DNA from: Cyanidioschyzon merolae | Lineage: Eukaryota | Length of the DNA: 64,000 bases | Assembly: GCA_000091205.1 (NCBI GenBank) | Contig: AP006499.2 | Reading direction: 5' to 3' (one strand) | In this document: positions 2,177 through 63,870 of the stretch, piece after piece | Layout: every line of letters begins with the position of its first letter | Numbering within the stretch: position 1 is the stretch's first letter | Notes under the pieces: generated by a model | What the model saw: the letters and a program-made list of their open reading frames with translations, nothing else | Databases searched by the model: none | What the model was told of the DNA's origin: nothing | Program-made: the position numbers and the translations under genes

Positions 2177-2209
2177 TCACTCGCATAACTTTCCTTTTTA
2201 ATTTTTTTT

Positions 2210-30232: not shown

Positions 30233-31620
30233 CGAAATTATTGTGTAATTAACCTTTTAGATCGTAGACGAATTGTCAGTAGGGTACGTATTCTTTACTA
30301 AACAGTCCACGGAGAACTGCATTCCTTCTTCATGTCAGACATTCCACATCACGCAGATGGTTGCGGAACACTGGAAGACAGGCATAGACGCGCTCTGCGT
30401 CAAGAACCGATATTCTCCACGTGTGCTTCCAATCAACGGTAGAACACGATCCTTTGATCACCTTTTCCGGAAGTACAAAGCGACGATAATAGATGCCACC
30501 AGCGCCTCTGTTTCTAAACAGCTTGTTCATGTGGTCCAGAATACACTAGGATACTGTCGCAAGAATGTCCTAGTTCAATCACCGTCATCTCCCATGGAAA
30601 TCCCAGTTACAGTGCTCCTTGAACATCGAGATCGGTATGAAGCACAGGGACGTGGGTTTTTTTCCTCAGTCAATGAGACTTGCTTCCGATGAAACAGTCG
30701 GAGAAGATACGGATATTTGCGGAGCGGGGCGCCCGTTCCATATACCATCGAATTCGAGACGAACGACGAAATCATCATCCGTTCTAGTTGTAGTGGATTC
30801 TATTTACGGCCTCAGTTTCGATCGTGGGGAAGGCTCATACAACAGCACCAACCATTTTGTCGAATCATTGACGATTTTTCTCTAACATCTGGCGACGTCC
30901 TTCTACTGAACAACGTGGCATTTCACCAGCCCCCTCGCGGTCGAGCGTTTCCCGATTCTATCGGGATAGAGCTCGTTTTCATTCTTCCGTACGCTCCGTG
31001 ATTCAACCGGAACGAAGCAATCTTTTGTATCCTGAAATGCAACGATTGCTCCACAGCGAGATTCGCTGAAGCGTCCAGCACATGGTAAAACTGGGCCACA
31101 TTATGTACCATTTGCGCAAGTGCTTTTTCTTCCGGGAAGGGCCCCACCAAAGGCCATAAAGAAGTGCACTCACTCTAAAAGAATTAAGGGATGAGCTGGG
31201 ATGCACACTTCAGATGCTCGAGATTGAGAAAAGACTGCAGAGCGCTTTGGCGACAGAAATGTACGAAGACATGATAGAGCACCAAATGGCACAGAGGGCC
31301 TAAGTGCGCAGATTCCTCGCATAGGTGAGTACAAGCGGAAGCAAGAAAGGCATGAAGTTCGTGACCCGAGATTATAACGCTGCTATCAATATCAGGAGAT
31401 TTGCGGTGCTGGCGACGAAATCCCGGAAGCTGACGCGAGCTTCCTTTAGAGGGTCAGCATCTCAGGCTCGAAGTATGCTGGGATAAATACTGAAACCGAT
31501 AGCAGGCAACCGGTTGAAAAAGCCTGGGAGGCGTCTTCTGGTGGATATGCATATACCCCCACATGGCGGTGCGAAATTTTTTATTTCACTGAGGGTATGT
31601 ATTTTGATGGACTTAAATAG
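30233..31620 (+). mobile_element. Short TnpB/Fanzor2-like element copy S3 (degraded), with an intact RuvC-III motif
   Basis: The 5' end CGAAATTATTGTGTAATTAACCTTTTAGATCGTAGACGAATTGTC matches S1. The interior has VLVVVDSIYGLSF. The C-terminus is LRDELGCTLQMLEIEKRLQS...KKGMKFVTRDYNAAINIRRFAVLATKSRKLTRASFRG. The 3' core at 31491-31552 is CTGAAACCGATAGCAGGCAACCGGTTGAAAAAGCCTGGGAGGCGTCTTCTGG. Confidence 0.65.
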
Positions 31621-33067: not shown

Positions 33068-36000
33068 TTACAGTACCGGAATAGTTGACTGCTTCTGGGC
33101 AGCATCCCATTGGCGATAAAGTTGATGCCATCGACGCAAACGCCGTCGACGAGCTCGCTCGCTTGCGTGACGTTGGTGGCTGGCAGCGGCCTCCATGTGC
33201 GATGATTCCCCTGAGAAAGAATCTTGCTTACGTCGTAGCAACTCGTCACATGTTTCTCCAATATGGACCAAACGATTCGTGTTGAGAGACATTTTCGATT
33301 CGAGTCCGTTCGAAATCAGAACTTGAAGCATGAGCTGCCTTTTCCAGGTTTCGTAAAGCGATATTCGATCGGGATCCGATGACGTAGCGTGGCCAAGTCG
33401 GCGACACCAGGACGCAAAGGATCGCTCCAGCGGCACGTTCACAACAGAACGCTCGAAGGCGTAGAGTTTGCGGGCATCAACCGCCATCGGCAACATATCC
33501 AGCGTGTGTTGGTGCTGGTGTTGTCCTTGCCAAGCAAAGAATCCTAGATAGCTGGCCGCCGCTTCCGCAGCTGCAGCGGTATCGCGTCGACGTGGAATGC
33601 CCTCATCGCTTGTCAGCAGGGTTACAGTGAGGATTGCTGGAGTCGACGCCAGCGTGGCTCGATCCTCCTTGGGTTCGAGGTCACTGGCGCCTGACCCCAC
33701 TGGCCCCGGAGCGTCCTGCACCTGGAAGCGATAGAGATTCCCACCGCGCTCATCGCGTAGAATTTGTAGCGCTTTGATACAGTACGACACCTCTGCAATA
33801 CATAGAGCTTGCGCTTCCGCGTCGGTAACGCCATCACCATCAGGGACCAGACCGCGCACGAGATCCTGCTCTTGAGCAAAATACAAGGCAACGAGTCTCG
33901 ACTGAGCCGTGTTGTACGCTTGTTTCACTAACTTGAATAGCACCTTGTCTAAGGTAAAGAGCACGTACGATTCAGGCCCCAGTACGCGGCGGCAGTAGTC
34001 TTCATACTCTTGGCTATCGATGGCATTACTCAGGTACCTCCGGAGCATGTCCATATATTCTCTGTATATGTCCGAGGGGGCGCGCAGCGTCGCCTCCGCC
34101 CTCGCTTCACCTTCGGGATTGTAGAGGGAGTCGGAGATGGATTTGAGGTCCATGGCCGCCTCAGGCTGACGTTGCTCGTTCATTCGAGCTGATCGTTGCC
34201 TCTCGTACTGGGACTGCGCCATCTGTCGAGCGGCGGCCAGACGCTGGAATGCGATTTCGTAGAGCCGCATGAGAATATACAGGGACTCGTCGGCGAAAAG
34301 AACCGAGTCGTTCCGATAGCGCATCCTCTCGACTCTTGCATTGCGCTTCGGACCCGGCACAGAAGTCGACCCGGTTTCCGCCTTGATCGCTGGTGCCTCT
34401 CCGGGTCGCACACTGGGCACCTCCTCTGACAACGACAGAATGACTGGATCGAGGCCATTCCCGCCATCCCGTGTGTCCATCTCAGCACAGAAGTTTTCAT
34501 CAGGCGATGACTTTCGCGAGACGCTGTCGGAGGCCGCCGGCGAGTCCCCCGCTGAGCGCTCATCTGCAGCACGAGCCAGCTCATTCCGCAAAAGGCCACT
34601 CACATCCGCAAGCTCCGAATCCGTCTCTTCGCGAACGACGGGCGCAGTGCACTCGCCAGGAGTCTCGACTGCGCGAACACCAGGATCATGCAAATTGATG
34701 CCAAAGAATCTCCCGAAAAGCTCCGCATAGAACTGCAAGAGATGCGCACATTCCATCGGCCCGTACTCTAGATGAGACAAAAACGACACCAGTGCATATA
34801 GGTCCTGATGCGCCTTCTTCAGACGGAGGCGGAATCGCAAGCACGGAGGCTCTAGCGCCGACACCACCGCAAAGGGGTCGCGTTCAGGCGCCGCCGCTGA
34901 ATCGCCACACGCAGCGCTCAGTGATGCGTGCGCGCACTCGAACGTGCCCCCGTGGACGCACTGCAAAGCAACTTGCCGAGCGCGCCAACTGTTTTCGAAC
35001 TCACGGCTGAGCGCAGGGTGTCCGAAACCGCAGCCGAAAGCGACACAATCACAGGAGCCAGCCATGATATTCGCGGCAAAGACAGCGACCGTGATCGCTT
35101 CCATGAGCGTCCGGACCTCTGCGATGTCGTGGATGTCCTGGAGGAGGCCACGGACGCTGATTGTGCGCTTATCACTCTGTCTGAAATAAAAGCTTCGGTG
35201 ATCCAGGCTCTTGAAATAGTTGCGTTCACAGATTTCTCTCCAGAGTTTGTTCATTTCGACGCGAGCTCTTCGCCATTCCTCGTCCTTCTGTTTGAGGCGG
35301 TTCAGGACAATTGGAACTGCCACACTTGGTTGCATCTTCACATGCATGACCATTTCTGGGCCGTGTGCTCCATAGACTCGCTCTATGGCCCGGTAATGCA
35401 CTGCACTGAGGGCGTGCTCGGCGAGCATATGTTTTGCCTTTTCTTCGTCGCTCATATGGGCGATCACCATGGCCAGAGGTTCAAGCTTATGAATCGTTGC
35501 CGCATTCGTCTCGATGACCATATCCAGCTCGTAGCGATCGTCTTCACATCGAAAGAGATTGTCTTCAAACTGATTGCGACGCATGTGCTTGAACGAGCCC
35601 TCCTCGCTCCCGGTCGGCACTGACACCCAGATATCGTTCAGTACCTGTTTCTCAAGCTCACCGCGACCACTACATGGCATGGATTGAAATTCGGAAGGTA
35701 TGCGTTTGTAGCTGGTGTCACAACGTTCCCGGGACTCTGCTGCCGCCTCGCTGAGCGACTTGTAGCGCCAGAGCCCGTCAACCGGGGGGGCGGTCGCCGA
35801 CGGTGGAGCACGGCCCTCTAGAATCGCCAGCGCTGCCTCGACGCCCGACATTGCACTTTCTGCATCGGTTGGATGCTTGGACCTGCGTGCTGGGGCACAA
35901 GCATCCAAGAACGTGCGGAAGGCCTCGCTTAAAATATGCCTGTGTCCGAAAAGTTCATCAGCAAGGCTCATCAGCTCTGTTCTGCCGATAATCTCCTGGT

Positions 36001-37723
36001 TGTAAAGACTCAGGCACTTGATGAACTCATGAAATTGATGTGCTTCCATGCGCTCCCGCAATTTTTCGAAAAAGAGAAGCTCGGCTCGAGCTCCGTAAGA
36101 AATGGGCGAAAGTCCAGACAACGCAGTAGCAGCCGTTGAAGACGCGTGCGGCGCTGTCGCAATCGTCTGTTCCAGGTGCTGTGGAACGAGTGCAGCCTGG
36201 AGCGGAGCATCACGCCCGTCGAGGCTAACTCCCTGCGCAGTTTCGCTGCGTCGACTCCTTTTGGTTCGCTTTGTGGGTCCTCCCGTCGCACCAAGGTTGC
36301 TCGCCGCTCGTTTTGCCCAAGTTATTTGTCTTGCGCTCTCGATTTCATCCTCCACAGAATCTGGAAGAAAACTCTTGAACTCTTCCAGGAGATCTGGATG
36401 ACCGCGAAAGATCTGAGAGACTTCATCCAGCACGCTGAATTTGTCCTCTCCGTCGCGCTGATAGGCCTGCAGAATGTTCAGAAACCTCTGGTAGATTGCT
36501 GGTTGGTTCTGAAAACGCTGCTTGACTTTGTTCACGTATTGGATAGCGTGGTCGAATTCCTCATTGTTGAACGTGGACAAGCTTGGTGGTACCCCAACGG
36601 CTTGTGCGTTCACGACAGCTGCACTGTCGGCGACGGTATCCGCAACACGTTGCGGGACGTGCAGCTGTTTGGGTTCCTGCGAAGGCTGAAACGCTCGAAA
36701 CGCTTCAGGTCCAGCTCTAATGTGGGCGTTTCCCATGGCAGAAGACATTTCAGCGACTCTGTATGCGTCTGGAACAGCATGCTGACTTGGACGAGTGATT
36801 GCGCCTGGATATGGAGCGCGAGCACGGGTATCCTCTGCAGCGACCGTAATCTTCGCATCATCCCTTTCATTTGCAGGGCCGGGTGTTTCTGCGTGAACGG
36901 GTGCTGCATCCAAGCAGTCTGAGAGCTCAATTTTGTATCCCGCCGGCAGAAAAGTGTTGAAGCCAAGCACAAGGTTGGGATAGCCGCGAAAAAGACGCGT
37001 AACTTGCTCAATTACGCCTGGTGTATCGATTGTTTGCGCCTTGAATTCTTTCATGATGTCCAGGAATTTTGCATAGATTCGCGGCCGATCCTCGAACTGG
37101 GCCTTCACCTGCTCTAAATAAGCCAGAGCGTCCTCGACTCTCAAAGCTCGCGCCTGCGAGCCTTCCTCGGTCTCAGCAGGTTGATTCATTCGGTCAGCAG
37201 CTGCACTGGTCTCCTCGGACTGGGGATCGAGCTTAAGCACCGTGCGTGCGGCACCAGCTCGTTCTGTGCTGTCGCTCTCGCGTTTCGAGCTACTATTTTT
37301 ACCGCTCACCGTCGGTTCAAGGTTTTGCGTAACCTGTTTCTCTGTAAACTCTAAGTGCGTTTTGTGCTGGCTCGAAGTAGGCGATATAGGCTGGGTTGCT
37401 GTCTCCCGAACGTGCGAATGCGCACCCTCAACTAGCGTCGCCAGTTCATCTTCTATTGTTCGTGCACCTTCTCTCGGCATGGTGTCCGCCGTGACATCTC
37501 TGGGCACGTTTTCGGTCTCCGAACGTAGCGCTTCAGCGCGTTCGCTACGATCATCTGTGCTTTGCAAAATCATCCCGGCCTCTTCGCTGCTTCCGAGACC
37601 AGCAGATCCCTGCGGACGCTGTGGTTCTGCCTCAACGCGCAGAGGCACTGTTTGCGTTTCTGGTGGCACCAGTGATGCCTCACCCGAGATCCGCTCCAGT
37701 AATCTATCTTCAGACTCCTCCAT
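33068..37723 (-). CDS. SIN3: Sin3-family transcriptional co-repressor (1551 aa) with three PAH domains and an HDAC-interaction domain
   Basis: True ATG at 37723-37721. PAH1 is ALAYLEQVKAQFEDRPRIYAKFLDIMKEFKAQTIDTPGVIEQVTRLFRGYPNLVLGFNTFLPAGYKIE. PAH2 is AIQYVNKVKQRFQNQPAIYQRFLNILQAYQRDGEDKFSVLDEVSQIFRGHPDLLEEFKSFLP. PAH3 is HEFIKCLSLYNQEIIGRTELMSLADELFG. The HID-like and Sin3 C-terminal regions follow. The ORF is one continuous open frame. Confidence 0.9.
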   Translation of the reverse strand: MEESEDRLLERISGEASLVPPETQTVPLRVEAEPQRPQGSAGLGSSEEAGMILQSTDDRSERAEALRSETENVPRDVTADTMPREGARTIEDELATLVEGAHSHVRETATQPISPTSSQHKTHLEFTEKQVTQNLEPTVSGKNSSSKRESDSTERAGAARTVLKLDPQSEETSAAADRMNQPAETEEGSQARALRVEDALAYLEQVKAQFEDRPRIYAKFLDIMKEFKAQTIDTPGVIEQVTRLFRGYPNLVLGFNTFLPAGYKIELSDCLDAAPVHAETPGPANERDDAKITVAAEDTRARAPYPGAITRPSQHAVPDAYRVAEMSSAMGNAHIRAGPEAFRAFQPSQEPKQLHVPQRVADTVADSAAVVNAQAVGVPPSLSTFNNEEFDHAIQYVNKVKQRFQNQPAIYQRFLNILQAYQRDGEDKFSVLDEVSQIFRGHPDLLEEFKSFLPDSVEDEIESARQITWAKRAASNLGATGGPTKRTKRSRRSETAQGVSLDGRDAPLQAALVPQHLEQTIATAPHASSTAATALSGLSPISYGARAELLFFEKLRERMEAHQFHEFIKCLSLYNQEIIGRTELMSLADELFGHRHILSEAFRTFLDACAPARRSKHPTDAESAMSGVEAALAILEGRAPPSATAPPVDGLWRYKSLSEAAAESRERCDTSYKRIPSEFQSMPCSGRGELEKQVLNDIWVSVPTGSEEGSFKHMRRNQFEDNLFRCEDDRYELDMVIETNAATIHKLEPLAMVIAHMSDEEKAKHMLAEHALSAVHYRAIERVYGAHGPEMVMHVKMQPSVAVPIVLNRLKQKDEEWRRARVEMNKLWREICERNYFKSLDHRSFYFRQSDKRTISVRGLLQDIHDIAEVRTLMEAITVAVFAANIMAGSCDCVAFGCGFGHPALSREFENSWRARQVALQCVHGGTFECAHASLSAACGDSAAAPERDPFAVVSALEPPCLRFRLRLKKAHQDLYALVSFLSHLEYGPMECAHLLQFYAELFGRFFGINLHDPGVRAVETPGECTAPVVREETDSELADVSGLLRNELARAADERSAGDSPAASDSVSRKSSPDENFCAEMDTRDGGNGLDPVILSLSEEVPSVRPGEAPAIKAETGSTSVPGPKRNARVERMRYRNDSVLFADESLYILMRLYEIAFQRLAAARQMAQSQYERQRSARMNEQRQPEAAMDLKSISDSLYNPEGEARAEATLRAPSDIYREYMDMLRRYLSNAIDSQEYEDYCRRVLGPESYVLFTLDKVLFKLVKQAYNTAQSRLVALYFAQEQDLVRGLVPDGDGVTDAEAQALCIAEVSYCIKALQILRDERGGNLYRFQVQDAPGPVGSGASDLEPKEDRATLASTPAILTVTLLTSDEGIPRRRDTAAAAEAAASYLGFFAWQGQHQHQHTLDMLPMAVDARKLYAFERSVVNVPLERSFASWCRRLGHATSSDPDRISLYETWKRQLMLQVLISNGLESKMSLNTNRLVHIGETCDELLRRKQDSFSGESSHMEAAASHQRHASERARRRRLRRWHQLYRQWDAAQKQSTIPVL

Positions 37724-38427
37724 CTATTGTGGCGAGTTGGCTTTTGCCCAGGTTGCGACCAAGGCAAGCTCACGACTATATTTCCACAGCAGTGCTGGCT
37801 TTCCTCGAGCGAGAGCAACCTGCGCGCAGCAGTCTCAGATCCGACTCCGCTTCCCCGGGGCGCGTAGCTTCTAGAGTGGTGAAAACATTATTAACACAAT
37901 CCGTGACCTGTATTGAAATTGTGCAAGCTAACCAGATTCAAGTAACGGGTAATAAATATAAAAATAAATCTTATCGTCGTCATTCAGGACGTCCAGGAGG
38001 GATGAAGATTCGTTATTTTTATCAAATAGGTGGAAAAAGAGCATTGGAACATGCAATTAAAGGTATGCTTCCAAAAGGTGTGAAAGGTCGCCAATTGTGG
38101 CGAAAAATTCGTATAGAAGCTTAGAAAGAGTTATGTATGCCATAGGAAAACGTAAATGTGCCATCCCCGGGGAAGCAACCAGCCTGTATCGTGTACCAAG
38201 CTGCAATCCATATTTGTGCATATTAATTCTAAACATTCCACGATTGAACTGGATCCAGTGCAGCCTCGAATCGCGATGCCACCCTGGCGGCTAACCTGCT
38301 GCGCGTACCTGGCAGCTAAAAATGATTCTTGTTCCTCTAGTTGCTTTCAACTTAATTCAGTTCCAACCCCGCTGTATAAAATCGAATGATTTTTCTCAGT
38401 GTAGAGCACGAGATCGAGGTCACTATG

Positions 38428-39788
38428 TAATTTATTGTGTACATCTTAGATGAATAGCCTGTAGGATATATTCTTTAGTAAACAATCCCTGCAGGACTGT
38501 ATTTATCCTTCAGGTCAGTCATACAACAGTACTCAGACGGCTCAGGAACACTGAAAGAAAGGAGTATATGCGCTCCGCGCCAAGTACCGATATTCTCAAA
38601 GCATGGTTGCGGTGAATTGTAGGAATTGGACCCGTTGATCGTTTTTTACGGAAAGCAAAAGCGAAGATAATAGCGAACACGGGCGTCACTTTTCTCACGA
38701 GCTTGTTCGGGTGGCGCTGAAAACAGAGGTATACTGCCGGAGAAAAGAGCCCAGTCTCATGCACGGCAATCTCCCGCTGAAATCGCCTCAGCAGAACTCC
38801 TGGAACGTTGCGATCTGTAAGAAGTAGAGGAACTCCGGATCGTTTTCTCTGTCAATCAGACTTTATTAGGAAAATACGGTCGGTGCGTGTATGGGTATTC
38901 GCAGAGCAGGCAGCCGGTTGTATGTAAGATGAAACTCACAGAGAACGAGGATATTATCATCTATTCTAGCTGCGGTGGATTTACTTGGCGGCCTCGGTTT
39001 CGCTCGTAGAAGAGAATCATGCAACAGCACCTGCTACGTCGAACCATTGAAGACTTTCCCCTGACGTCTCACGACGGCCTTCTATTGGACACCGTAGCAT
39101 TGCAACATTCCCCTTGCGTTCGAGCTCTTGCCGATCCTGTCTGGGGTAGAGCTGCTTTTCAATCCTTCATACACTCCCTGGAAAAATCCAATCGAAGGAA
39201 TGTTTTCTATTGTGAAACGTACTGATCGCTCTACTGGACGAATCGCTGAAGATCTCAGCACATGGTTACACCGAGGCACATGTCGCATGTCGTCCGCAAG
39301 TCCTCCTCGCTCCAGGAAGGTCCTCACCTCAGGGCCTAAAGATTTGCATTCATTTTCAAAAACCAAAAATCTCAGGGATGAGCTGGGGTGCACGCTTCAC
39401 AAGGTCGAGATGGAAAGAAGGCAACGGATCGCCTCGGCGATGGAAATGGACAGAGACATCACAGAGCTGCAAGTGGCATTGAGGGCGCGCATTCGAGGAC
39501 TCCTTGCACCGATGAGTATCACGAGTGAGAAGAAATGCATGGAGTTCGCGAACCGAGATTTCAGCGCCATCGTCAATATCAGATGATGTGCGGTGCTGAA
39601 GACAAGACCCGAGGAGCTGACGTGATCCACTTTTTGGGGCAGTATATCAGGCTCTAAGTGTACAGGGATAGAAACTGAACCTGACAGCAGGATATCGGTT
39701 GAAAAAGGCTGGGGCATCCGCGAATGGGCGAATATATACCATCCATAGGCGTGAAATGTGTATCCTTTTTCCTGCAGTATGTATTCAT
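38428..39788 (+). mobile_element. Short TnpB/Fanzor2-like element copy S4 (degraded)
   Basis: The 5' region is shared with S2. The C-terminus is LRDELGCTLHKVEMERRQRIASAMEMDRDITELQVALRARIRGLLAPMSITSEKKCMEFANRDFSAIVNIR*. The 3' core at 39675-39725 is GAAACTGAACCTGACAGCAGGATATCGGTTGAAAAAGGCTGGGGCATCCG, followed by GCGAATATATACCATCC. Confidence 0.6.
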
Positions 39789-40449
39789 GCATTCATCACG
39801 ATTAGGTGGATCGAGTGGCGACCTCTCGTTCGTACGCTGAACGCGCGTCCGAACAGCAGCTTTGCTGGAACAGGGGCAGTGCTTTGTTGTCGAAAACAGG
39901 CCGAAAACCAAGCCGCGGCTTGTTGCCAGTCAGCATTTTCCCGAGAACGATTCCCATTGATCGACATCGTAAATTTGAATCCGAGATGCCTCCTGCATGA
40001 AGCTTGCTACGCACTGGGTTTTGCTCCACTCGATACAAACCTGCGCAATCTTTCCACGAATGCTGAAGTCCCAGTTTCGGAGCAACGAGTTGTACTATGA
40101 ATAGAGCAAACTTGCAACCAGTTCATGATTTCGTAAACTTGCACTAGGGCGGCTGGCAAGAAACACTGGCTTTTCGATACGGCGCATGCTGAGCGATATC
40201 AGCCCGATATTGAAATACGGTATTTTCTTCTCGTGAAATGCAGCAGGCAGCCCGCGCAGAAGGAACCTGAGCCGAAGCATCCCAGAAGTGCCTTTCGGGG
40301 AGAAAGCAGCAAAGTACATGACAAATTTCTACGCAGATCATTATGCGTATGGCCTGGCCACATCCAGCGGGCATCTTTGTGAAACAGCACTTTCATAAGA
40401 CGCTGCTGTGAAAAGCCCTTGAATGCATCACTATTTCCAAGTTCTGCGC

Positions 40450-41885
40450 GTGCGCCGCCACCGATACAGCATCTTCGGCTCCTTTATGCATGCACGCAGA
40501 TACATCCACGTCAAATTCAAATGGAACCGGGCACATTCACCTAACACGGATGTTTACTCTAAAGTTTGGGTCCGGTCCCTTTGCCATCAACACCAGCATT
40601 TGCGGCATTTTTACGCGACTGCTTCCTCTTGCTTTCTCTCACCGCCGGCTTTAAATATGCAGGTCTTTCCATTTCTCCAGCCGCGTTGCCAGAATTCGAT
40701 TGATCTGGATGACAGCATCAAGGTCCTGATTATGATGCTTCCGGCAGCTGCCGACGCAATTAAAGCAGATGCGGAAGTTGCTATCTACACCCTGCTTGCC
40801 ATTTTCATCTTCTTCTTACATCGCCTCGGTGTGCCCATTGCAGTAGATGCACTTGGCTGCGGTATAAAATTCCCATGGTTACACCACATATTCTCCTCAT
40901 AGGGCGGCCCTCTGAAGCGTGAACGTTTACTTCATCGCTTGCAGTAGGTCGATGAAGAGTACTTGAGGCTCCCCTCGGTTGCGTTCTCCGTTTCCGATCC
41001 CGATATCATGCCCCAAGATCATAAGCTTTTCCGGGGCAATCACATAAACGAGCTATCTGTCCGATGCGTGAACGCGCACTGTTCCATTCGATAAAAGATT
41101 TGTGGAATTCGATGTTGTCCATGGTGGAACAAATGCTAGAAGGGAAATTCGCGCAAGCGATCGAATCGAGAAATTTCGATCCGTTTACGCTCCATTCGTG
41201 CAAATTGTTGAAGCACTGTCGACTAGAAGCGATCGCTGCTATGATGCGAGTCCGAGTCCAAGAGCCTTTTCTATGGAAACAGAAGATATGGAATCATCTG
41301 AAAGATATCCATGTAGAGGTATGACGCTGGTGTGGACTGCATTTTCGTCGATAGCCACAAAAAGATGAATGATTCGTCTTCCGGAAGAAATTGATTATAT
41401 GGAATGAAATGCTCAGTATGTGTTCGGCGTGAGCTCGTGAAGAAATCGTCATGGAAGGTGACCGAGTGTTTTATTTCGTCCATAGAGCAGCGCGGATTGC
41501 TGCGCCCAAGATTTGCGTTGAAGTAGAAAAAAAATTCTTCGAAATTCCTTATTTGACTATGCAAGAGGTAATAAAAAGATAAGAAAGAATTCTTTTACAC
41601 ATGGATTGGATGATCAAATTGTTTATTCGAAGCACCGTCGTTTGAGGGTGTCACGAATACTCTTTATAACGGTGACGTACCAAAATTCCAGGGGCAGAGT
41701 GTCGACAGTGCTACTCCAAGAGAACGATCGCAAACCCCAAACTGCTTATGCATCCATCAGCCCTTGGTGCTGTGCATCGAATGTTAAGGCTGTACATCTA
41801 TAAAGAAGATCGACAAAGTCGACATGCATAAAGCGAGTGCGCGGCTCAGTTTCACATTTAAATTTCACTTCAGGATTATATCAAC
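40450..41885 (+). repeat. Unclassified repeat family E, copy b (C/H-rich module plus downstream conserved segments)
   Basis: ORF 40423-40902 (HVKFKWNRAHSPNTDVYSKVWVRSLCHQHQ...LPAADAIKADAEVAIYTLLAIFIFFLHRLGVPIAVDALGCGIKFPW) and 41064-41324 are homologous to copy c (15139-16640). Copy b carries an AT-rich insertion at about 41500-41640. Confidence 0.55.
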
Positions 41886-42439
41886 TCTAGAGGGCGTACT
41901 GGGCATTCGATAATTGTCCAAAAACGCAGCGCGTCACCTCTGCCAAGTTGTGAAATTCCATGAAGTACAGTATGCGTTCCGTCATGCTGTCGCTTCCACT
42001 AGAAGCACCCGCGGTAACATTCCGTGGGAAAGGATGCGCGGCTGCGCATTGCATGCAAAACAACTTGGTTGTGAGAGAAGAGATCGCTGTTTGAAATATC
42101 CATCACTCTGCATAGCCAACACGGATGCAAAGCACAAGATCTCCAGCGAATCTTCTCGTATAGAGTGTTCTTCTGTCATGTCGCCGTCATTAACAAGAAG
42201 AGCCCTTGAATCCACATATCTTTGGAGCCCAGTAGAGATGCGCAGCGCTCTCGAGCGCAGTATCTGGCGAGGATATCTCTCCTCATCCTGGGTTCGGGGC
42301 TCTTTCGCAAGCTCCAGACGAGACTCTCACTCACGAATGTAGAATGACTTAGCCTCATCGTAGTTCATCACTTGCCACGGAAAATCGTTCCCTGCGTATA
42401 CATGCGACGTTGAAACTTTGCTGGATTAACGAACAGTAC

Positions 42440-44800
42440 CACACCAGCGACACGTGCCAGTTGGGAATCGAGTGCGATCACTCCTGGCGGCTGAGATTCT
42501 TCTCGACGGTCGTCTTCACCGTTTCAGCGCAACGCCGACACTGAGTAATGAGCGATTTCCTCGAAATTTCGCTTGAGACAGAGCTGCTGAAAGCTCAGGA
42601 AGCACGAGAAGTTTCCGGACGTTGGTCGAGATCTTCAAGTCACGATGCAGAAACCGCTTGCCGGAATGCGTAAAGTTGGAATCACAGCCAAGAAAGCATC
42701 TCATCTTCATCCATGATGGCATCTGACGGTGAACCGGCGTACCGAATAATATCTCGTACACCCAGTTCAGTTTCAATGTATTTTTTTCGACCTGTTCCCG
42801 CAGGCGCCCATGCACATGTTGCCTGGATGCCGTAAAAAACTGATCGATGAGACTCACATAGAATCGATTCTAGCACTTGTCATGCGCTCTCGTTGAAGGC
42901 GTGGGAGTGAAGCCTTTTAACGGTCCAGCACGTTCATAATAATCGGATACCATCAAACGACACGATTTCTCGGTCATATTCTTTCCCAAGTCATTGAAGA
43001 AGTTGGCAAATGCGCGCTGCCCTGCCCTGTACAATTAAAACCGTTGGCGGCTCGAGCACGTTTCCATATGCGCCCAACAGGAATCGTACGCATGAGCCAC
43101 TTGGACGCATTCGCATTCTCTGACTGGAGAAAGCAAAGCATTGTCCCTGCTCGACAAATTGCCAAGGGCGTTGAGACTGGTCCTGAAGCTGCCATTCCGC
43201 CCATTGGTATTCCTAATAGCGCGCATCATTCTCGAGCCCAGATGGTATCGACCTCTGGGAAATTGCTTTTCTTGATCTACTTTCTGTTCATGTATTTAAC
43301 TTGGCCCTCTTTATTTAGAGGTACCCTGGCAGCCATGGCGGTCTTAAATCGGCGATCTATGCCCCTGAAATGATCGTTCTATTCATCTTCTCTAAAGATT
43401 AAAAACGAGTCATGTTGCTCGACTCAGTCCTAGGTTTCACGAGTTTCTTGATGTCCTCCCAGCTAAATTCTCTGCCGGTCTCCGTGGTCCATGTAAAAGC
43501 TTTCCGTTTCACCCCTGTAGACGAGAAACCTTGCACGAGCTCCGCCGATGCTCTTCCCGATATTGTTGGAATGCGTCGTGGTTTCTCGCAGAGGGCAACT
43601 CTATCTTCACCTTTCTCGCTCCATGGCTGGCCAGCATGAACGTTGTTGCTCAGCTTCACATCCGTTTTCCCCGCAGAATCCAGACGCACCGTCCAGACGC
43701 ACTGCTCCGAGCGTGTTACCGAAACTTGCCCTCTCTATTCATGTATCCTCTATTTCTTAACTAAATTTTCGCTTTCTGCTCCGTCGCGAGCATGCCCATG
43801 AACCGAAGCGCGCCTTTTCGCTTCCTCTCTCGCATGAGTTGAGGAGCAACGCAGCAGTCGTGGTGTTTTGAAAGCAGAGAACGATTTTGCGAAGACCGCT
43901 ATCACGGATGCGAATGACTCTTCTGTATCATAGATCATATAAATTGCGTTTGACGGTAGAGTAGACACCTTTGACTGGACTGGGCCAGGGAGAGTAAATA
44001 CGCACGAAGAGAAGCTCAAATCTTGTCCCAGCAGTGTCCCGCTAACCGTTTTGAGTAATATGAAGCAGTGTAATCTAGGAACAGGAAACAGGTATGTGGG
44101 AAGGAGCCGCCCCGAGTTATGCCTCGAGAAATGATGAGCTATTTAATGATTCATTCAGTTTGACCATTCGATTCATACACCGCCGAGGCTGATAATGGCG
44201 GATTACTCGCTTTTCTAGTCTTCAGAAATAGTTATTTGCCTCTTGCTGAGTGCCCGTGTAGAGTTCTCGCATTTCTCTCGAATGCAGTCTCATCTAGTGA
44301 TTCGAAAACCCATCTCCAATCTAATGAGCGCTCCTATTTTAGTACCAATTCTACACCATGCTGCTCAGCGCGCGATGGTTTCCAGTAGAAGCGCGCGTTT
44401 TGCTTTATACATCCACGTCTCTTCGCCACCGTCCGTTCCAACGATGCGAGAAGCTCATTTCCTGTCGATTTTTCAATGTTATTTCTTAGGGAACGTATGG
44501 AGTGGCGTGAATCGGCTACGGGGCAGCCTTGCACATAGTGATCGGATGGTTCTGTTTCGTCGACGCGACCTCCGGGATAAAAGCTAAGATATGGATGGTC
44601 CATCCCCTTGTTGATCCATTGAACGACTAACCTCGTCGAGTAAGTTTTTATTTCTCGCCAGCTAATATTGACAGTATAAAGCCTTTCCATAACCTTTCCC
44701 TAATCTACAGGATACAATACTTTCGTTAAATACCCGCTAGAAGAGCAAACATAACCAGTAAGGTTGCGGTGATCCAGATAGTCCAGAATTCACTGCACTG
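42440..44800 (-). mobile_element. Long TnpB/Fanzor1-like element copy L3 (diverged, degraded)
   Basis: Minus-strand segments align to LA/L+: 44334-44690 (YSTRLVVQWINKGMDHPYL, about the ASSGLMHLV block), 43750-44019 (...DGAESENLVKK, about GDGAESREQ), 43399-43689 (VKRKAFTWTTETGREFSWEDIKKLVKP, about VRKIEFTGETSETYWKNIFDIKHLK), 43035-43229 and 42880-43040 (VQVAHAYDSCWAHMETCSSRQRF*...QRAFANFFNDLGK, about VRVAHWDALWEEYTKPRW...QRAFANFFNQL), and 42516-42857 (RFYVSLIDQFF...GKRFLHRDLKISTNVRK, about RDFNAAINIRK). The 3' core at 42472-42530 resembles the family block. Confidence 0.55.
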
Positions 44801-45221: not shown

Positions 45222-45935
45222 ATGATAGAGCGCTGCGGTAGTTCTTTCTGTACAGCCTATATCGCCTTATCCGTCCTCTTCGACGTCTATCTTGTGCGAT
45301 TTTTTTTGGACGCGGTAAAGGTTGCCTTGGGTCTACCCAAATCAGCGGGGGAAAAGCTCTTCTCCGCAAGACTCTACAAAGCCCTTCAGAGCACGAAGAA
45401 GAGATCTATTCCCCTCTTCGTCCGGGTGATTTCTTCGAGTTGTGACGGTACCATTTGGTTCTTCTTCCCTTTGCTTGTGGGGCTCGTCGCAAACAGTCCT
45501 TTTGCATGGCCTCTGCTGCTGCACTGTTTCCTAGTGCCAGCGCTAGCCGAGCTTGTGGTGAAGAGCATCTTCAGACGACCGCGCCCCAGTCACAATACCC
45601 GTCACGTGTTTCTGGCCCCTGGGGAACGCTTTTCCTTTCCTTCTGGCCACTCGACGAGAGCAGCCGCCATCGCATGTTTCTGGACAAGATGGTTATGTTG
45701 CGCTTTGAGTCCTCGAAATGTGTGTTTAGCGCTTTGCGTGCACTTCTGGGCAATCAGCATCTCGCTCTCGAGAGTGACTCTCGGACGCCATTATCCCAGC
45801 GACGTCATCGCAGGGCACTTGGTCGGGACTCTTGCAACGATCATTTCGCAAGAGGTGCTTCTCTTGGATGCGCGATTGCCGCCCCCATGGCAACTCCTGC
45901 ACAGTAACCTGTTGTCCAGGCGTTTTGCAAATTGA
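45222..45935 (+). CDS. PAP2-superfamily lipid phosphate phosphatase (type 2 phosphatidic acid phosphatase family)
   Basis: Tripartite PAP2 motif: KSIFRRPRP, FPSGHS and SRVTLGRHYPSDVIAGHLVG, with several TM helices. The ORF track begins at TTG 45102. The first ATG is at 45222 (MIERCGSSF...). Confidence 0.65.
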   Translation: MIERCGSSFCTAYIALSVLFDVYLVRFFLDAVKVALGLPKSAGEKLFSARLYKALQSTKKRSIPLFVRVISSSCDGTIWFFFPLLVGLVANSPFAWPLLLHCFLVPALAELVVKSIFRRPRPSHNTRHVFLAPGERFSFPSGHSTRAAAIACFWTRWLCCALSPRNVCLALCVHFWAISISLSRVTLGRHYPSDVIAGHLVGTLATIISQEVLLLDARLPPPWQLLHSNLLSRRFAN

Positions 45936-47169
45936 AGCCGCCGGTTACACCGTCGACATCGAGCACTTCCCCGCCAAAGTATAGACCTGGCACGCGCTTG
46001 CTCTCGCACGAGGCCATATTCACATCGCGAAGGTCGACGCCGCCTGCCATTACGAACTCTTCCTTGAAGGGAGAGCGGCCCACTATATGAAGCTCACAGC
46101 GAGTAAGAGCATCACCGAGACGTTTCATTTCCGCTGCGCTTAGGTTTGCGTAATTTTGCGTGCTATGAATTCGAGCTACCTTGGTTACAAGTGCAGCCCA
46201 GAGCCTCCGAGGCAACATGAAGGGATTCCTGGTGAGAATGCCAAGACGACGACCCGAGCTCTTCCGCCAGCTCTCCATGACCTCCGTGAAAGGGCCGAAA
46301 GAAGGAATGAAATTCAATTGAGCAGTGAAGCGGTACTTGCGTTCACAAAATACTCGAGCGCCAAAAGCAGATAGGGCAAGCACCGCTGGCCCCGTTATAC
46401 CACTGTGACTTATGAGCAATGGACCAGTCTCCTTTAGTGCAGGGCCATTTAGAGTTGCTCGGGACGCGGGTTGCGCGCTCGGCTCCGCGAAACTGACCTC
46501 AGCTTCTGGTATCGCGATGCCAGCCAGCTCGAGAAGCCATGCATGTCTCTCGGGGCATACCGTAAAGCTAAACAGACTGGGTACGAGCGGCACGACGCGA
46601 TGATCGCCGAGCATCTGGGCCCAGTCGAGTGCTCTTTGTGAGGCTCCAGTTGCCAACATCAGCCTCCGCGAACTAAAGTGCCCGCGCTTTGCAACGTCGA
46701 CTCGGAACAGCGGCTGGTCGCCCTCGCGCTCGTGTGCAACGTCCGTGACTTTGCAGTTTGTCTCGACTTGCACACCAAGCCGATCAGCCTCTGAAACGAG
46801 GGCGTCTACTATACTCTGGCTTTTATTAGAAACCGGAAAAACTCTTCGATCAGATTCTACCTTTAACTTAACTCCGCGACGCTCAAACCAGTCGAAGGTT
46901 TCGCGAGGCCCAAAGCGACTCAACGGTCCGAGTAGCTCACGACTTCCACGTGGATAACGTCCGGAAAAAGTTTGCAGATCGAACGCTGCGTGCGTCACGT
47001 TACATCGTCCACCACCGCTTATACGAACCTTCCCCAGCACTTGAGAACCGGCTTCGAAGATAAGCACCCGCGGTTGAGTGCCGCTGAGCGCTAGCGCACA
47101 CTGAGCACAATGAATCGCCGCGAAGAAACCAGCGGGGCCTCCACCTACTATGACAACGTCAAATATCAT
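45841..47169 (-). CDS. HI0933/BaiN-like FAD-dependent flavoprotein (aminoacetone-oxidase family)
   Basis: N-terminal Rossmann motif MIFDVVIVGGGPAGFFAAIHCAQ and RISGGGRCNVTHA, typical of the HI0933 family. The ATG is at 47169 (the ORF track starts at GTG 47214). The 3' end overlaps the convergent PAP2 gene by 95 bp. Confidence 0.65.
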   Translation of the reverse strand: MIFDVVIVGGGPAGFFAAIHCAQCALALSGTQPRVLIFEAGSQVLGKVRISGGGRCNVTHAAFDLQTFSGRYPRGSRELLGPLSRFGPRETFDWFERRGVKLKVESDRRVFPVSNKSQSIVDALVSEADRLGVQVETNCKVTDVAHEREGDQPLFRVDVAKRGHFSSRRLMLATGASQRALDWAQMLGDHRVVPLVPSLFSFTVCPERHAWLLELAGIAIPEAEVSFAEPSAQPASRATLNGPALKETGPLLISHSGITGPAVLALSAFGARVFCERKYRFTAQLNFIPSFGPFTEVMESWRKSSGRRLGILTRNPFMLPRRLWAALVTKVARIHSTQNYANLSAAEMKRLGDALTRCELHIVGRSPFKEEFVMAGGVDLRDVNMASCESKRVPGLYFGGEVLDVDGVTGGFNLQNAWTTGYCAGVAMGAAIAHPREAPLAK

Positions 47170-48121
47170 CAGTGAGATACGATTCGATTCATCTAATGCG
47201 CCTTGTCTAGCCACGGGAGCGTCAAGTAACGCGGCAGTGCCTGGCCCTCAGCACTGAATACACAAAAGTCTTACGAAGGCTGGCGATGCCCTGCCGCAAA
47301 TCACCAGAATCACAGGGATTGGTTCGCTGCTGGGCGCTGTTTGCGCCCCGTATAGGATACAGCATGATTGTTCCGCCTTCTTTGCTTCCGTCATGTCGTG
47401 TCATACGAAACTTGGATGCTTCGAGCCGTTCTGTAGAGTATTGTGGCGGAGCGCATGCCAAAAGATGCCGCTCGTCGAGGCTCCGCGGCTGGCGAGATGC
47501 ACTTTATGCTTGGGTTCGATAGTGGAGCGCATCTGACTTGCGTGATAGGTGTCTGTTCTGGAGGGGTTGTTGGAAAAGCGGAGTCTCTGGACTGAGACAT
47601 TCAATGGTGTGCATCAACGCTATTTGCCGTTTAAATTGGCTCCGGAGCGCCTCAAATCCTGACGATCTGCCGCCGTTTTGGGCGGCATTCTCTGCACCTG
47701 CCTCAAGCAATAGATCGAGTATATCGTGGAACACTACTGGAGCATTTCTTCCCGAAGCAGACACCCGCAGCATTTCGGTCTGACGCCACTGGAGCTTAGG
47801 CTGCTTCTTCGGCAGGGGGTCTAGGTCTTTTTCCCGCAGCGGCTGCATGCAGATAAAAAGGATCCGTCCATTTCTCCAACTGAAGGAAAGATTTTATGTT
47901 CGTGCAAAAGCGGTATTTCTATCGACGGGCATGGCAATGGACACGGGAGGAACTTGAATACATTCGAAGGATTTCAGCGTGTTTAGCTTGCAGACGAACA
48001 CCTGCCTCGAAAAGCAGCTCTCAACGAACCCGACCAGATGCTCCATCGGAGAAATTCACCTTTGTATCTAATGCATGTGCCCTATAGGAATGGATGCTCC
48101 AGTGGAAGGCGCGCCAACGAC

Positions 48122-51471: not shown

Positions 51472-52000
51472 TTGTATCGCCAGTAAAATGGACAACATTT
51501 CATGATCATAGAGGGAAAATATATACCTTCTCACAGACGCTTCCCAGCCTTTTTCAATCAGTTGCCTGCTATCGGTTTCAGTGTTTATCCCCGCACGCGT
51601 CGAGCCTACGAGGCTATCCCAAGAAGTTGGATCGCTCCAGCTCCTTGGGTCTCGTCTTCAGTGCGACACACCTTCTGATATTAATGGCGGCGCTGACGTC
51701 TCGGTGCAAGAACTCCACGCGTGCATTGACGCTGGTTAAACTCGCCACTGCAAGGATTGCTGGAAATCGTGCCCTCTGTGTAACTACAGTCTCGTCATCG
51801 TCCCGTCTCGTAAACACCTTTCCTCGCCTGTCTCCTCTTTTTTCTTCTTCGTCACTTGCTCTGCTTCGCTCAATATTCGGCGAGAAGAGAATTTTTTCCG
51901 TTTCCTTCAGGCAGCCAACGATGACGGCCTTCCAGGATCCGGGACTTCCATGCCCATGCTTTGTCCTTGGATTTTTTATTTCTTCAAATGAACGCACTTG
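51472..52000 (-). mobile_element. 5'-truncated short TnpB/Fanzor2-like element copy S5, closest to S3, with an intact RuvC-III motif
   Basis: Minus ORF 51614-51997: MRSFEEIKNPRTKHGHGSPGSW...RASDEEEKRGDRRGK (the module shared with S2), then ...PAILAVASLTSVNARVEFLHRDVSAAINIRRCVALKTRPKELERSNFLG. The 3' core (reverse complement of 51523-51578) is CTGAAACCGATAGCAGGCAACTGATTGAAAAAGGCTGGGAAGCGTCTGTGAG. The tail GAAATGTTGTCCATTTTACTGG matches the S1 tail. Confidence 0.6.
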
Positions 52001-60989: not shown

Positions 60990-61165
60990 CCGCGATGAGC
61001 GCACCGCGACTTTACGCGAGGAAGACGCAAATGGCAAGCAAAGCGTAGATCGCATCTCCCTTTCGAGCATTAGATGCGTGAGCAGCAGCCGGAAGCAGTG
61101 AAATGGTGGCTTTGACACTGCCATCAACATACTTCTACTTCTGAAAACGGAGCTAGAGGGACAAG
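60990..61165 (-). repeat. Partial copy (d) of the E-family C/H-rich module, directly upstream of L+
   Basis: The minus-strand translation DGSVKATISLLPAAAHASNARKGDAIYALLAICVFLA* matches DGSVQVPISLPPGVLETVHPEAVVTIYALLAIAIF of copy a. The nt motif GATGGCAGTGT(C/T)(A)AAG is shared. Confidence 0.5.
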
Positions 61166-61440
61166 AGAATTCTGCGTTGCTACAGGCGCATATGAGAGAG
61201 ACAAGGGAAGTAGTCAAACATCATGCCCGCCAAGACTGGTATTGACGAAAGTGAGAAGCGACCCAAAGCCTAGTCTTTTCTCCCGAGTTAGAGGGTCGGT
61301 CCTCGTTTGTTCAGAAATGAGTGTAGATCTGCCTCCACGTTGGGGGCCTATTAATGAAATGATTCATAATCCGCGTCCTCCTGCTGGCAAACCTGCTCTT
61401 TCTACTTATGGTCTATCACCTCAATTTAGTTCCAATCTCA

Positions 61441-61505
61441 GGTGAGCGTCATCGAATGCTTTTTCGCAGTTTTCAGCAGGAGCATTGGAGTGCATTCATT
61501 TTGAA
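61441..61505 (+). other. Putative 65-nt spliceosomal intron in the L+ 5' leader (CTCAG|GTGAGCG...TTTTGAAG|)
   Basis: Same length and position as the LA intron (GTAAGT...CAG). A leader of about 25 nt precedes the ATG at 61531, as in LA. The upstream ORF 61242-61445 cannot be spliced in frame, so exon 1 is non-coding. Confidence 0.5.
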
Positions 61506-61530
61506 GAAATGAATAATCCAAGGTGAAGCT

Positions 61531-63836: not shown

Positions 63837-63870
63837 CCGGCGAGCACGCGCTCGTGCGCGTGCTCGCCGG
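63837..63870 (+). other. Perfect 15-bp inverted repeat (hairpin) CCGGCGAGCACGCGC-TCGT-GCGCGTGCTCGCCGG at the 3' end of the L+ conserved block
   Basis: Read directly from the sequence. Its position suggests a 3' structural element of the candidate RNA, a terminator, or a subterminal transposon hairpin. Confidence 0.75.

Follow-up and report, generated by a model that had tools for sequence, protein, structure and literature searches.

A decayed transposon family of Cyanidioschyzon merolae with fragments of a Tc1/mariner-like transposase and a Fanzor gene

Background

Mariner elements that carry both a transposase and a Fanzor1 gene, with TA target-site duplications, are known from the examples PUl-1 and PGv-1 (Bao & Jurka 2013, PMC3627910). 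PUl-1 of Pythium ultimum spans 3,620 bp, with 24-bp terminal inverted repeats (TIRs), a TA target-site duplication and an 802-aa Fanzor1 (PMC3627910), and autonomous Mariner/Tc1-Fanzor associations have been reported (Jiang et al. 2023, PMC10530073). The Fanzor1 motif reads [TS][TS]-x-x-[C4 zinc finger]-x(5,50)-RD, with the RuvC-I aspartate 125-275 residues upstream of [TS][TS] (PMC3627910). A single Fanzor1 family, CMe-1, is listed for Cyanidioschyzon; CMe-1A of Cyanidioschyzon merolae (3,169 bp; ~150 copies, ~80 % identical to the consensus), in which no TIRs were found, is unclassified (Bao & Jurka 2013, PMC3627910).

Here, a repeat family designated E is analysed in a stretch of 64,000 nucleotides of Cyanidioschyzon merolae contig AP006499.2 (assembly GCA_000091205.1), referred to as the window. 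Non-autonomous Tc1/mariner derivatives formed by internal deletion constitute a general class that includes the precursors of MITEs. Family E represents the decayed fossil of a transposon rather than a new gene family, and its kind is one already known, that of the Mariner/Tc1-Fanzor1 elements (Bao & Jurka 2013).

Results and discussion

Copies and divergence of family E

Using positions 40200-42200 as blastn query against the window, the other copies were recovered at 68-71 % identity (E down to 2e-16), with matches that are collinear along ~1.3 kb, and the five collinear window copies of ~1.27-1.45 kb each could be aligned end to end with MAFFT (Table 1). All five copies of the preliminary description are real, while the extents it gave for copies a, b and e are far too short. 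At least ten further distinct copies occur on metagenome contigs. The fifteen aligned copies (~11 independent) are all collinear and share one junction. Identity to the consensus is 67-77 % (72-77 % for most copies), and between copies it amounts to 51-62 %, in a star-like pattern. The existence of the repeat family is far beyond chance. Copies a and b differ very little (98.1 % identity with a 21-nt indel counted, ~99.7 % outside it), and copy a is a recent 5'-truncated copy of b. Some consensus columns are uncertain because the copies from which it was built are only ~57 % identical to each other. A protein homologue search with the stitched consensus returned a single match, a gene call on another decayed copy.

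Table 1. Copies of family E in the window and features of copy d. Strands refer to the sense strand of the element, which is the minus strand for copy d, the ends of which were set by aligning the family terminal consensus to it.
Feature	Position	Strand	Remarks
Copy a	4484-5750	+	5'-truncated, 21-nt deletion; lacks ~100 nt at 5' end including 5' TIR
Copy b	~10769-12147	+	full length, old; 5' terminal region degenerate
Copy c	15147-16599	-	full length, TA at both ends; ~50-nt duplication at 3' terminus
Copy d	40501-41878	-	whole element, 1,378 bp; TA at 40501-40502 and 41877-41878
Copy e	59940-61325	+	full length; directly upstream of 5'-truncated CMe-1A Fanzor element (61407-63842)
Copy d, 5' TIR	41852-41878	-	sense-strand reading TAATCCTGAAGTGAAATTTAAATGTGAA
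Copy d, transposase pseudogene	41099-41797	-	N-terminal ~230 aa, Tc1/IS630-like; several stops, one frameshift
Copy d, internal-deletion junction (approximate)	41074-41098	-	transposase ends after DNIxFHK; Fanzor from ~residue 560, other frame
Copy d, Fanzor/TnpB-like pseudogene	40565-41073	-	C-terminal ~170 aa; four stops, one frameshift
Copy d, 3' TIR	40501-40527	-	+ strand reading TACATCCACGTCAAATTCAAATGGAAC; homologous to L011/L016 3' TIR GTGTTCCATTTCTACTTTCTCTGGTGTA

Transposase and Fanzor fragments

The 11-copy consensus restores stop-free open reading frames in just two sense frames, one for a transposase (~230 aa) and one for a Fanzor (~190 aa). Its Pfam matches include DDE_3 (34.6 bits, E=2e-8; cut-off 28.6), over profile positions 3-117 of 146, HTH_Tnp_Tc3_2 (E=6e-5), HTH_33 (E=8.5e-5) and Cas12f1-like_TNB (31.4 bits, E=2e-7; cut-off 26.3), and a four-copy consensus scored 29.5 bits for DDE_3 and 25.1 bits for TNB. 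In copy d, the transposase pseudogene retains the HTH region together with the first and second catalytic D motifs (AIDEN..., TMDNIEFHK). The consensus transposase fragment matches copy d at 41797-41099 (E=9e-49), and the transposase of L011, one of the intact relatives described below, matches copy d at 41629-41096 (E=6e-8) and copy c at 16346-15819 (E=3e-17) by tblastn. As judged from the DDE_3 core and the N-terminal HTH, family E belongs to the Tc1/mariner superfamily (IS630-Tc1-mariner). The transposase part is cut off just past the second catalytic D (DNIAFHK), and as the complete DD34E/DD34D triad is missing, family E is a non-autonomous derivative and not an autonomous member. The PPYSPxxNPIE motif with the third catalytic residue is absent from family E, with at best a doubtful YSPxxSP trace. 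This candidate, picked by eye (VPHETPRRNEGVE), was rejected: the DDE_3 profile stops at 117-118 of 146, and its reading as the third motif is doubtful because the region overlaps the Fanzor alignment.

The Fanzor pseudogene of copy d includes the vviGYG region, the RuvC-II E (PWEFYTA), a CxxC...CxxC zinc ribbon and RuvC-III (HNQDLDAVIQINRI). Copy d itself matches Cas12f1-like_TNB at E=0.027 and the consensus Fanzor fragment at E=5e-38, while the L011 Fanzor finds copy d at 41034-40678 (E=7e-5) and copy b at 11670-11999 (E=6e-6) by tblastn. The Fanzor1 C-terminal motif is kept in the consensus (TTAKCHRC...CMKC...NRD / TTAKCHRC...CMKCVDNSRKQRNRD), and the zinc-ribbon cysteines are partly mutated in individual copies. 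The RuvC-I aspartate and the N-terminal half are missing, with the homology starting at ~residue 560 of a 780-aa relative, and family E holds a fragment of a Fanzor gene, not a Fanzor gene. The eukaryotic host, the Tc1/mariner carrier, the 763-780-aa relatives and the homology to PUl-1 suggest that this fragment has Fanzor1 affinity. It resembles the TnpB of IS200/IS605 and IS607 elements in its match to the TnpB/Cas12f TNB and in the order of RuvC-II, zinc ribbon and RuvC-III; however, family E resides in a eukaryote, has a DDE (Tc1-like) partner rather than a Y1 or serine TnpA, and has TIRs and TA flanks. PDB sequence searches with the CMe-1A-type Fanzor ORF of the window, the family E transposase part and the family E Fanzor fragment gave no match.

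When aligned to the consensus, the L011 transposase (aa 2-255; tblastn E=6e-47) and the L011 Fanzor (aa 545-760; E=4e-32, 43 % identity) overlap by ~120 nt in different frames, and the convincing parts of the two alignments meet at consensus nt ~925-935. The junction is thus placed approximately, and the weak YSPxxSP match in the overlap could put the breakpoint ~70 nt further 3'.

Termini

The family consensus 5' TIR (TACACCTGTATCAGATTAAAATGGAA) resembles the TIR of L011 (TACAACCGTGAAAATTAAAATGGAACAC), and an ATT-AAATGGAA core is common to both. Copies c and d have TA at both ends, and copy e and several metagenomic copies have it at the 3' end; it is degenerate in copies a (AA) and b (TT), at the 5' end of copy e and in several metagenomic copies. 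TA flanks and TIRs fit a Tc1/mariner element, the TA duplication being putative. The terminal evidence on family E itself is modest because of this degeneracy and because the consensus TIRs pair at 21/29 positions (~70 % complementary). In scans of the individual copies no convincing inverted repeats emerged, the TIRs having decayed too far. An early candidate for the 5' TIR, TACAGCCT... at 41794, is the start of the transposase ORF, with the true TIR ~85 nt further out. A Helitron, IS605-like or LTR nature, considered from the a/b borders (TCGTAG...GCGTG) that lack TIRs and a target-site duplication, was discarded with the finding of family-wide termini and of the 5' truncation of copy a.

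Intact relatives in other metagenomes

Intact relatives, with 34-43 % protein identity to family E, are found in other (saline-lake) metagenomes. One element of 3,610 bp occurs in both L011 and L016, where its flanking sequences are unrelated; it is bordered by TA on either side, has 28-bp TIRs homologous to the family E termini, and encodes a 326-aa DD34E transposase followed by a 780-aa Fanzor. The same arrangement of a DDE_3 transposase (317-326 aa across L011/L016, L012/L013, L014 and L022) and then a Fanzor recurs in all of these elements; the L012 Fanzor is complete at 763 aa, as is that of L011, and those of L014 and L022 run off their contigs. The L011 transposase scores 98.5 bits for DDE_3 and 28.7 bits for HTH_33, and 34 residues, read off the sequence, separate its second D from the E. 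Its Fanzor has GLDPG at D451, 196 residues before TT; in the form that Bao & Jurka defined, the motif is D451-X196-TT-xx-C4 zinc finger-RD. Directly against the window copies, the L011 proteins give tblastn values of E=3e-17 to 7e-5. L011/L016 may be regarded as candidate active Tc1-Fanzor elements.

The inferred parent of family E has the architecture and size of PUl-1 and PGv-1 (transposase, Fanzor1, short TIRs, TA), preserved intact in L011/L016. Kinship with PUl-1 is no more than distant, with L011 showing 25 % identity in the transposase (E=3e-14) and 24 % in the C-terminal part of the Fanzor (E=5e-6); for the relatives as a whole, homology to the PUl-1 Fanzor1 lies at E=5e-6 to 5e-7. Family E further differs from PUl-1 in being a deletion derivative with ~230 aa of transposase and ~190 aa of Fanzor, non-coding today, and in its host, a Cyanidioschyzon-like red alga.

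Neighbouring Fanzor elements

The elements next to family E are members either of the published CMe-1A family or of one with a CMe-1A-type Fanzor 3' end. The CMe-1A consensus matches the window at 10-3107 (82.9 % over its full length) and at 61407-63842 (83-87 %), and the neighbouring elements previously labelled 'L' match it at 83-87 %. Family E, in contrast, has only a 29-nt match to the 3,169-bp consensus, at the RD motif, and is not a CMe-1A member; tblastn with the CMe-1A-type Fanzor C-terminal ORF of the window (63067-63678) did not find family E at E<0.01. Both are old Fanzor1-bearing repeat families of the same genome with the RuvC-III motif NRDFNAAINI in common, but in family E part of a Tc1-like transposase is present and TIRs can be recognised; it is also more decayed (~25 % from its consensus) and has intact ORFs in no copy. 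The proximity of some copies to Fanzor-like elements had been taken as a possible sign of a shared carrier transposon, but it gives no indication of one, since the Fanzor fragment of family E differs from that of its neighbours and the relative orientations differ between loci.

A further family of the window, T, is unrelated to family E and combines part of a Tc1-like transposase with just the 3' ~350 nt of a CMe-1-type Fanzor. A weak DDE_3 match in a neighbouring T copy, at first suspected to be spurious, was confirmed by the T consensus; the E-like tail of that consensus is an artefact, copy a having been included in the T1 extract. Together, families E and T hint that the CMe-1 Fanzor, too, was once on a Tc1/mariner carrier. 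For a Cyanidioschyzon-like red alga, from which just the unclassified CMe-1A was previously known, family E would add a second, Tc1/mariner-borne lineage related to Fanzor1.

Origin of family E

Family E is very probably an ancient, non-autonomous and internally deleted Tc1/mariner derivative, the parent of which carried a Fanzor1 gene downstream of the transposase. This parent would have measured ~3.6 kb, in the order TA / 27-bp TIR / DD34E transposase / ~780-aa Fanzor / TIR / TA, and a single deletion of ~2.1 kb would have fused the transposase, just past its second catalytic aspartate (DNIAFHK), to ~residue 560 of the Fanzor. This deletion would have spared the two TIRs, residues ~1-230 of the transposase and, at the end of the Fanzor, ~190 residues with RuvC-II, the zinc ribbon, RuvC-III and the basic tail. 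The product would be neither an active transposase, because the third catalytic residue is missing, nor an active nuclease, because RuvC-I and the N-terminal half are missing. Mobilisation was presumably in trans, by the transposase of a full-length element acting on the retained TIRs, with insertion at TA. The shared junction and the star-like divergence argue for amplification from one deleted progenitor, after which every copy would have decayed neutrally to ~25 % from the consensus; the a/b pair would be much younger, the outcome of a partial duplication or of gene conversion in which no transposase took part. Family E resembles other internal-deletion Tc1/mariner derivatives in having lost its middle, third catalytic residue included, while retaining the TIR at either end, and in the rise of many copies from a single deleted progenitor followed by neutral decay. 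At ~1.38 kb it is larger than a typical MITE, however, and its 3' side is the tail of a Fanzor gene rather than transposase sequence alone.

A chimera formed by nested insertion, of a Tc1-like element in or beside an unrelated Fanzor element with later truncation, could draw on a genome full of neighbouring Fanzor (CMe-1A) and Tc1-like remnants, in which a full-length parent of the family E lineage was not found. It is nevertheless improbable, as the intact relatives show the same gene order and orientation within one TIR pair, to which both family E termini are homologous, and as the Fanzor fragment has its nearest counterpart in these composite elements (43 %) and not in the resident CMe-1A. 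Even less credit can be given to the idea that one locus multiplied through segmental duplication or gene conversion in place of transposition. The near-identity of copies a and b (98-99.7 %), and the 5' truncation of copy a, which lacks a TA target-site duplication, fit such a process, and for this pair alone the explanation holds; in the rest of the family, the flanks are unrelated immediately outside the TIRs, the copies lie in both orientations on many different contigs, their divergence is star-like, and the termini consist of TA and TIR.

Family E keeps that portion of the parent in which Fanzor guide RNAs are encoded, namely the 3' end of the Fanzor ORF and the TIR. Family T, too, has independently retained just the 3' part of a Fanzor beside its Tc1-like transposase part. 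Folding of the 3' ~235-240 nt gave weak z-scores (z=-2.67 for the family E consensus, z=-1.84 for L011), an Rfam search of the family E locus gave no match, and column support at the 3' end (0.65-0.73 vs 0.71-0.78 elsewhere) shows that it is not more conserved. It is conceivable, though unlikely, that the derivative is no random leftover and that members of family E were guide-RNA-bearing parasites which once relied in trans on full-length elements for transposase and Fanzor nuclease alike; the idea concerns the time at which the family was active, extra conservation of the region being absent today. If true, such parasites would be a eukaryotic analogue of the guide-only satellites of TnpB systems.

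Antisense reading frames

The preliminary description had read the + strand of copy d as encoding a C/H-rich module of about 130 aa, conserved at the amino acid level, from a gene family, probably multi-exon, or from the coding part of an unknown transposon. What stands of this is a former transposon coding part and a connection to Fanzors, not the gene family or the unknown kind. The + strand ORF 40423-40902 of copy d does contain the quoted peptide strings, but this frame is antisense and protein-level conservation is found in no frame, so that both the C/H-rich protein and the multi-exon gene are rejected. Pairwise amino acid identity is equal in all six frames (27-32 % in the region of module 1, 35-40 % in that of module 2), contrary to the claimed conservation, and tblastx gives similar scores in all frames. 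Substitutions are uniform over the codon positions of all six frames (chi-square p 0.4-0.99), with 652/657/664 in the part derived from the transposase and 431/393/416 in that derived from the Fanzor, and dN/dS lies at 0.72-0.92 in each frame, close to 1 and alike whichever frame is read, which argues against conservation at the protein level. The known transposon domains are matched on the opposite strand, where the consensus exceeds the Pfam cut-offs for DDE_3 and Cas12f1-like TNB. A dN/dS near 1 and a match to a known transposase domain are the two outcomes that the preliminary description had itself named as refuting it.

The modules stem from frames that happen to be open antisense to the core of the transposase, the C-terminus of the Fanzor and the 3' TIR. 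Module 1 (LPAAADA...AIYxLLAI...GCGIKF) is a codon-aligned antisense reading of the Fanzor pseudogene, module 2 (ORF 41064-41324 +) one of the transposase pseudogene, and the 'KWNR' motif is the AAATGGAAC core of the 3' TIR. The module ORF is intact in copy d only; copies a and b need a frameshift, copy e has a stop and copy c aligns partly, and the + strand module ORFs have no Pfam match. Although copy d offers intact + strand ORFs of 159 aa (40423-40902) and 86 aa (41064-41324), with which tblastn finds the other copies at 37-44 % identity, a real, possibly multi-exon protein family can be dismissed almost entirely, given the uniform frames and codon positions, the broken or partial ORFs of the other copies, the absence of a Pfam match, the two known domains and the intact element (E=6e-47, 4e-32) matched on the opposite strand, and the position of the N-terminal third of the module on a terminal inverted repeat. 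For annotation, a false 'new gene family' is hereby removed, and antisense ORFs over decayed transposons are seen to be capable of mimicking protein conservation. A block shared downstream, previously described as non-coding, is likewise the antisense of the first transposase codons, (M)YSLDIRSAA.

Extent and termini of the family E copies

Repeat family E, described in a preliminary description as coding for a C/H-rich protein module, is a real repeat family and an ordinary transposon fossil. Using blastn within the window, the other four copies match region 40200-42200, which contains copy d; identities are 68-71 % and the lowest E-value is 2e-16. All five copies are collinear across ~1.3 kb (tblastx) and align end to end (MAFFT). 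The 3' terminal region of copy c (15147-15250) incorporates a duplication of ~50 nt with two segments resembling the terminal inverted repeat (TIR) in tandem, and the TGTA ending occurs on the outer one only.

Coordinates of the transposon remnants in the window and of the intact relative in metagenome contigs
Feature	Position (strand)	Remarks
E copy a	4484-5750	without first ~100 nt
E copy b	~10769-12147	
E copy c	15147-16599	TA at both ends
E copy d	40501-41878	TA at both ends
E copy e	59940-61325	
CMe-1A, full length	10-3107 (-)	82.9 % over 3,111 nt vs published consensus
CMe-1A, 5'-truncated	61407-63842 (+)	83-87 % vs published consensus
Family T copies	3174-4400 (+), 30287-31560 (+), 38467-39745 (+), 23126-24457 (-)	
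Further CMe-1A or T-type fragments	42600-43175 (-), 51474-51996 (-), 27908-28132 (-)	intergenic
Intact 3.6-kb Tc1 (DD34E) + Fanzor (780 aa) element	L011 24-3633 (Ga0209937_1004465), L016 23-3637 (Ga0102927_1002676)	saline-lake metagenome contigs

Domain content of family E and its intact relatives

A six-frame Pfam scan of 38400-42000 returned no match in the frame originally proposed for the module, and a weak match to the TnpB zinc ribbon (Cas12f1-like_TNB; TNB) on the opposite strand (40911-40702). On this opposite strand, a consensus of four copies matched the Tc1/IS630-like transposase core (DDE_3) and TNB in two different frames, at 29.5 and 25.1 bits, respectively. The stitched consensus, used as protein query, gave a single match, a gene call on another decayed E copy. 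Scanning metagenomes yielded 32 loci. Fifteen copies, five from the window and ten metagenomic, some of them redundant, were aligned, and the consensus of the eleven independent copies restored two stop-free sense ORFs. The first is a transposase fragment (MYSLDIRSAAIRAY...AIDETAFH...GKGSWTRTRVIAAIAS...FIMDNIAFHK; DDE_3 34.6 bits, HTH_Tnp_Tc3_2 E=6e-5), and the second a Fanzor fragment (...RMEQRALARAADRVLAERIAQRKPVIVGYGTGRGNGGGHRGE...MWEHLTTAKCHRCEE...DRNYRLCMKC...NRDFNAAINILRLL...ERPAYL...; TNB 31.4 bits).

Both fragments have counterparts in an intact element on the 3,757-nt metagenome contig L011. The first ORF of this element (326 aa; DDE_3 98.5 bits, HTH_33 28.7 bits) carries IDETGF, LMDNIAFHK and PPYSPWFNPIE as motifs, its second D being separated from the E by 34 residues, and is matched over aa 2-255 by the E transposase fragment (E=6e-47). 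The second ORF (780 aa) includes GLDPG (RuvC-I), VWEHLTTRKCHRC, CEHC and NRDFNAAINIL, conforms to the Fanzor motif D-X196-TT-xx-C4-RD, and is matched over aa 545-760 by the E Fanzor fragment (E=4e-32, 43 % identity). In the alignment of E, conservation begins at TACACCTGTATCAGATTAAAATGGAA and stops at ...GTTCCATTTCATTCTGACATGGGTGTA; these two ends are inverted repeats matching at 21/29 positions, and are similar to the TIRs of the L011 element. The same 3,610-bp element is present with another flank on contig L016, and in both cases the borders read TA|CAACCGTGAAAATTAAAATGGAACAC ... GTGTTCCATTTCTACTTTCTCTGGTG|TA. Considering its ~99-100 % identity at two different genomic sites, its TA flanks and its 28-bp TIRs, this is probably a eukaryotic Tc1-Fanzor transposon that is active now or was until recently. 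Diverged intact relatives occur at L012/L013, L014, L018 and L022, and the same gene order was observed in L012/L013, L014 and L022.

Selection on the E copies and the antisense reading frames

The peptide strings first reported are present on the + strand of copy d, in ORFs 40423-40902 (159 aa) and 41064-41324 (86 aa). However, their interpretation as an amino-acid-conserved module of a real gene family is not supported. Substitutions relative to the E consensus are spread evenly over the three codon positions (transposase part, 652/657/664; Fanzor part, 431/393/416; chi-square p = 0.4-0.99 in all six frames), while dN/dS lies near 1 (0.72-0.92) and is alike in all six frames, as are pairwise amino acid identities and tblastx scores, which are equal and comparable, respectively. 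Thus the similarity between copies reflects nucleotide-level repeat identity, the outcome that the preliminary description itself named as contrary to its reading, and the copies have decayed neutrally.

The proposed modules are antisense to the element's own features. The C-terminal part of module 1 (LPAAADA...AIYxLLAI...GCGIKF) runs codon-aligned and antisense to the part of Fanzor that comprises RuvC-II, the zinc ribbon and RuvC-III. Further towards the N-terminus, the module (HVxxKWNR...CHxHQ) covers the 3' TIR (AAATGGAAC) together with antisense sequence of the basic Fanzor tail. Similarly, module 2 (LWNxxLSM...VRVQ[DE]) is the antisense of the DDE core (GSWTRT...MDNIxFHK), and the supposed non-coding block is antisense to the codons with which the transposase ORF begins. 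Automatic gene callers have placed hypothetical proteins on decayed metagenomic E copies (L001 847-1422, protein P0001; L002 3955-4426), on both strands and including the antisense ORF of the preliminary description (MRKRTLFLSIRDLLNAMLSM...). Public protein databases thus already hold spurious entries derived from family E.

Origin and amplification of family E

In E, the Fanzor fragment joins the transposase fragment directly after DNIAFHK, in a different frame, which corresponds to the loss of ~2.1 kb of the parent element. This deletion junction is common to all E copies, which share 67-77 % identity (most 72-77 %) with the consensus and 51-62 % with each other. Together these values indicate that the family stems from one deleted progenitor and one old amplification, followed by independent decay. 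Such a progenitor would have been mobilised in trans by the transposase of its parent, and would have inserted at TA.

Copies a and b represent a late partial copy. They share a stretch with sharp borders (4484-5750 and 10861-12147; 1,265 and 1,286 nt, respectively) which is 98-99.7 % identical, differing by one 21-nt indel and few substitutions, whereas the rest of E is ~25 % from the consensus. Both are G+C-rich (~58 %) in comparison with copies d and e. Copy a lacks the 21 nt relative to both copy b and the family, is 5'-truncated without a TA and adjoins the end of a T copy. Its deletion, missing 5' end and missing TA argue against transposition, and indicate that an ectopic duplication or a gene conversion took place recently, spanning 6.4 kb with the NIF-phosphatase and Spo11 genes.

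The guide RNA of Fanzor overlaps the 3' end and TIR (PMC10530073). Folding of the 3' ~235-240 nt is slightly better than that of shuffled sequences (z=-2.67 for the E consensus; z=-1.84 for L011). In the alignment of E copies this region is no more conserved than the rest of the element, and the E locus has no Rfam match.

Relationship to CMe-1A, family T and known elements

By match to the consensus of Bao & Jurka 2013 (supplementary file 2), the Fanzor-like family (L) of the preliminary description is CMe-1A, the published C. merolae Fanzor1 family, which identifies the source of the window as C. merolae or a very close relative. Two copies in inverted orientation, one per window end, have Fanzor ORFs broken into 3-4 pieces. 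The acidic linker of one pseudogene contains a 75-nt tandem duplication (62743-62892; 81 % identity). The second repeat family, T, consists of a Tc1-like transposase remnant (VLLLKNVAFHHS...FIPPCAPxFNPIEGVFSILK; matched by L011 transposase aa 218-283, E=5e-12) with the last ~110 codons of a CMe-1-type Fanzor immediately behind it, which match CMe-1A nt 2737-3084 at 78 %. T is a second, independent derivative joining a transposase to a Fanzor 3' end, and suggests a Tc1/mariner carrier as ancestor of CMe-1A too, a lineage so far unclassified.

Published Mariner elements, including PUl-1 (3,620 bp) and PGv-1, carry TA target-site duplications and encode Fanzor1 alongside a transposase (PMC3627910). 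Since PUl-1 is distantly homologous to the L011 element, while E is unrelated to CMe-1A at the nucleotide level (a 29-nt match only), E is a new, dead member of this known type, although it may already be listed in Repbase under an uninformative name.

The window (G+C ~52 %) derives from an intron-poor eukaryote: Sin3 (1,551 aa), Spo11, a CLC channel, a DUF760 protein, a phytoene/squalene synthase and class-II DAHP synthase are each encoded by a single long ORF. Database records of the identical DAHP synthase are confined to metagenome contigs. Sin3 (33068-37723) and a HI0933-like gene (45841-47214) are separated by an 8-kb transposon island, which comprises T, copy d of E and the C-terminal fragment of a Fanzor.
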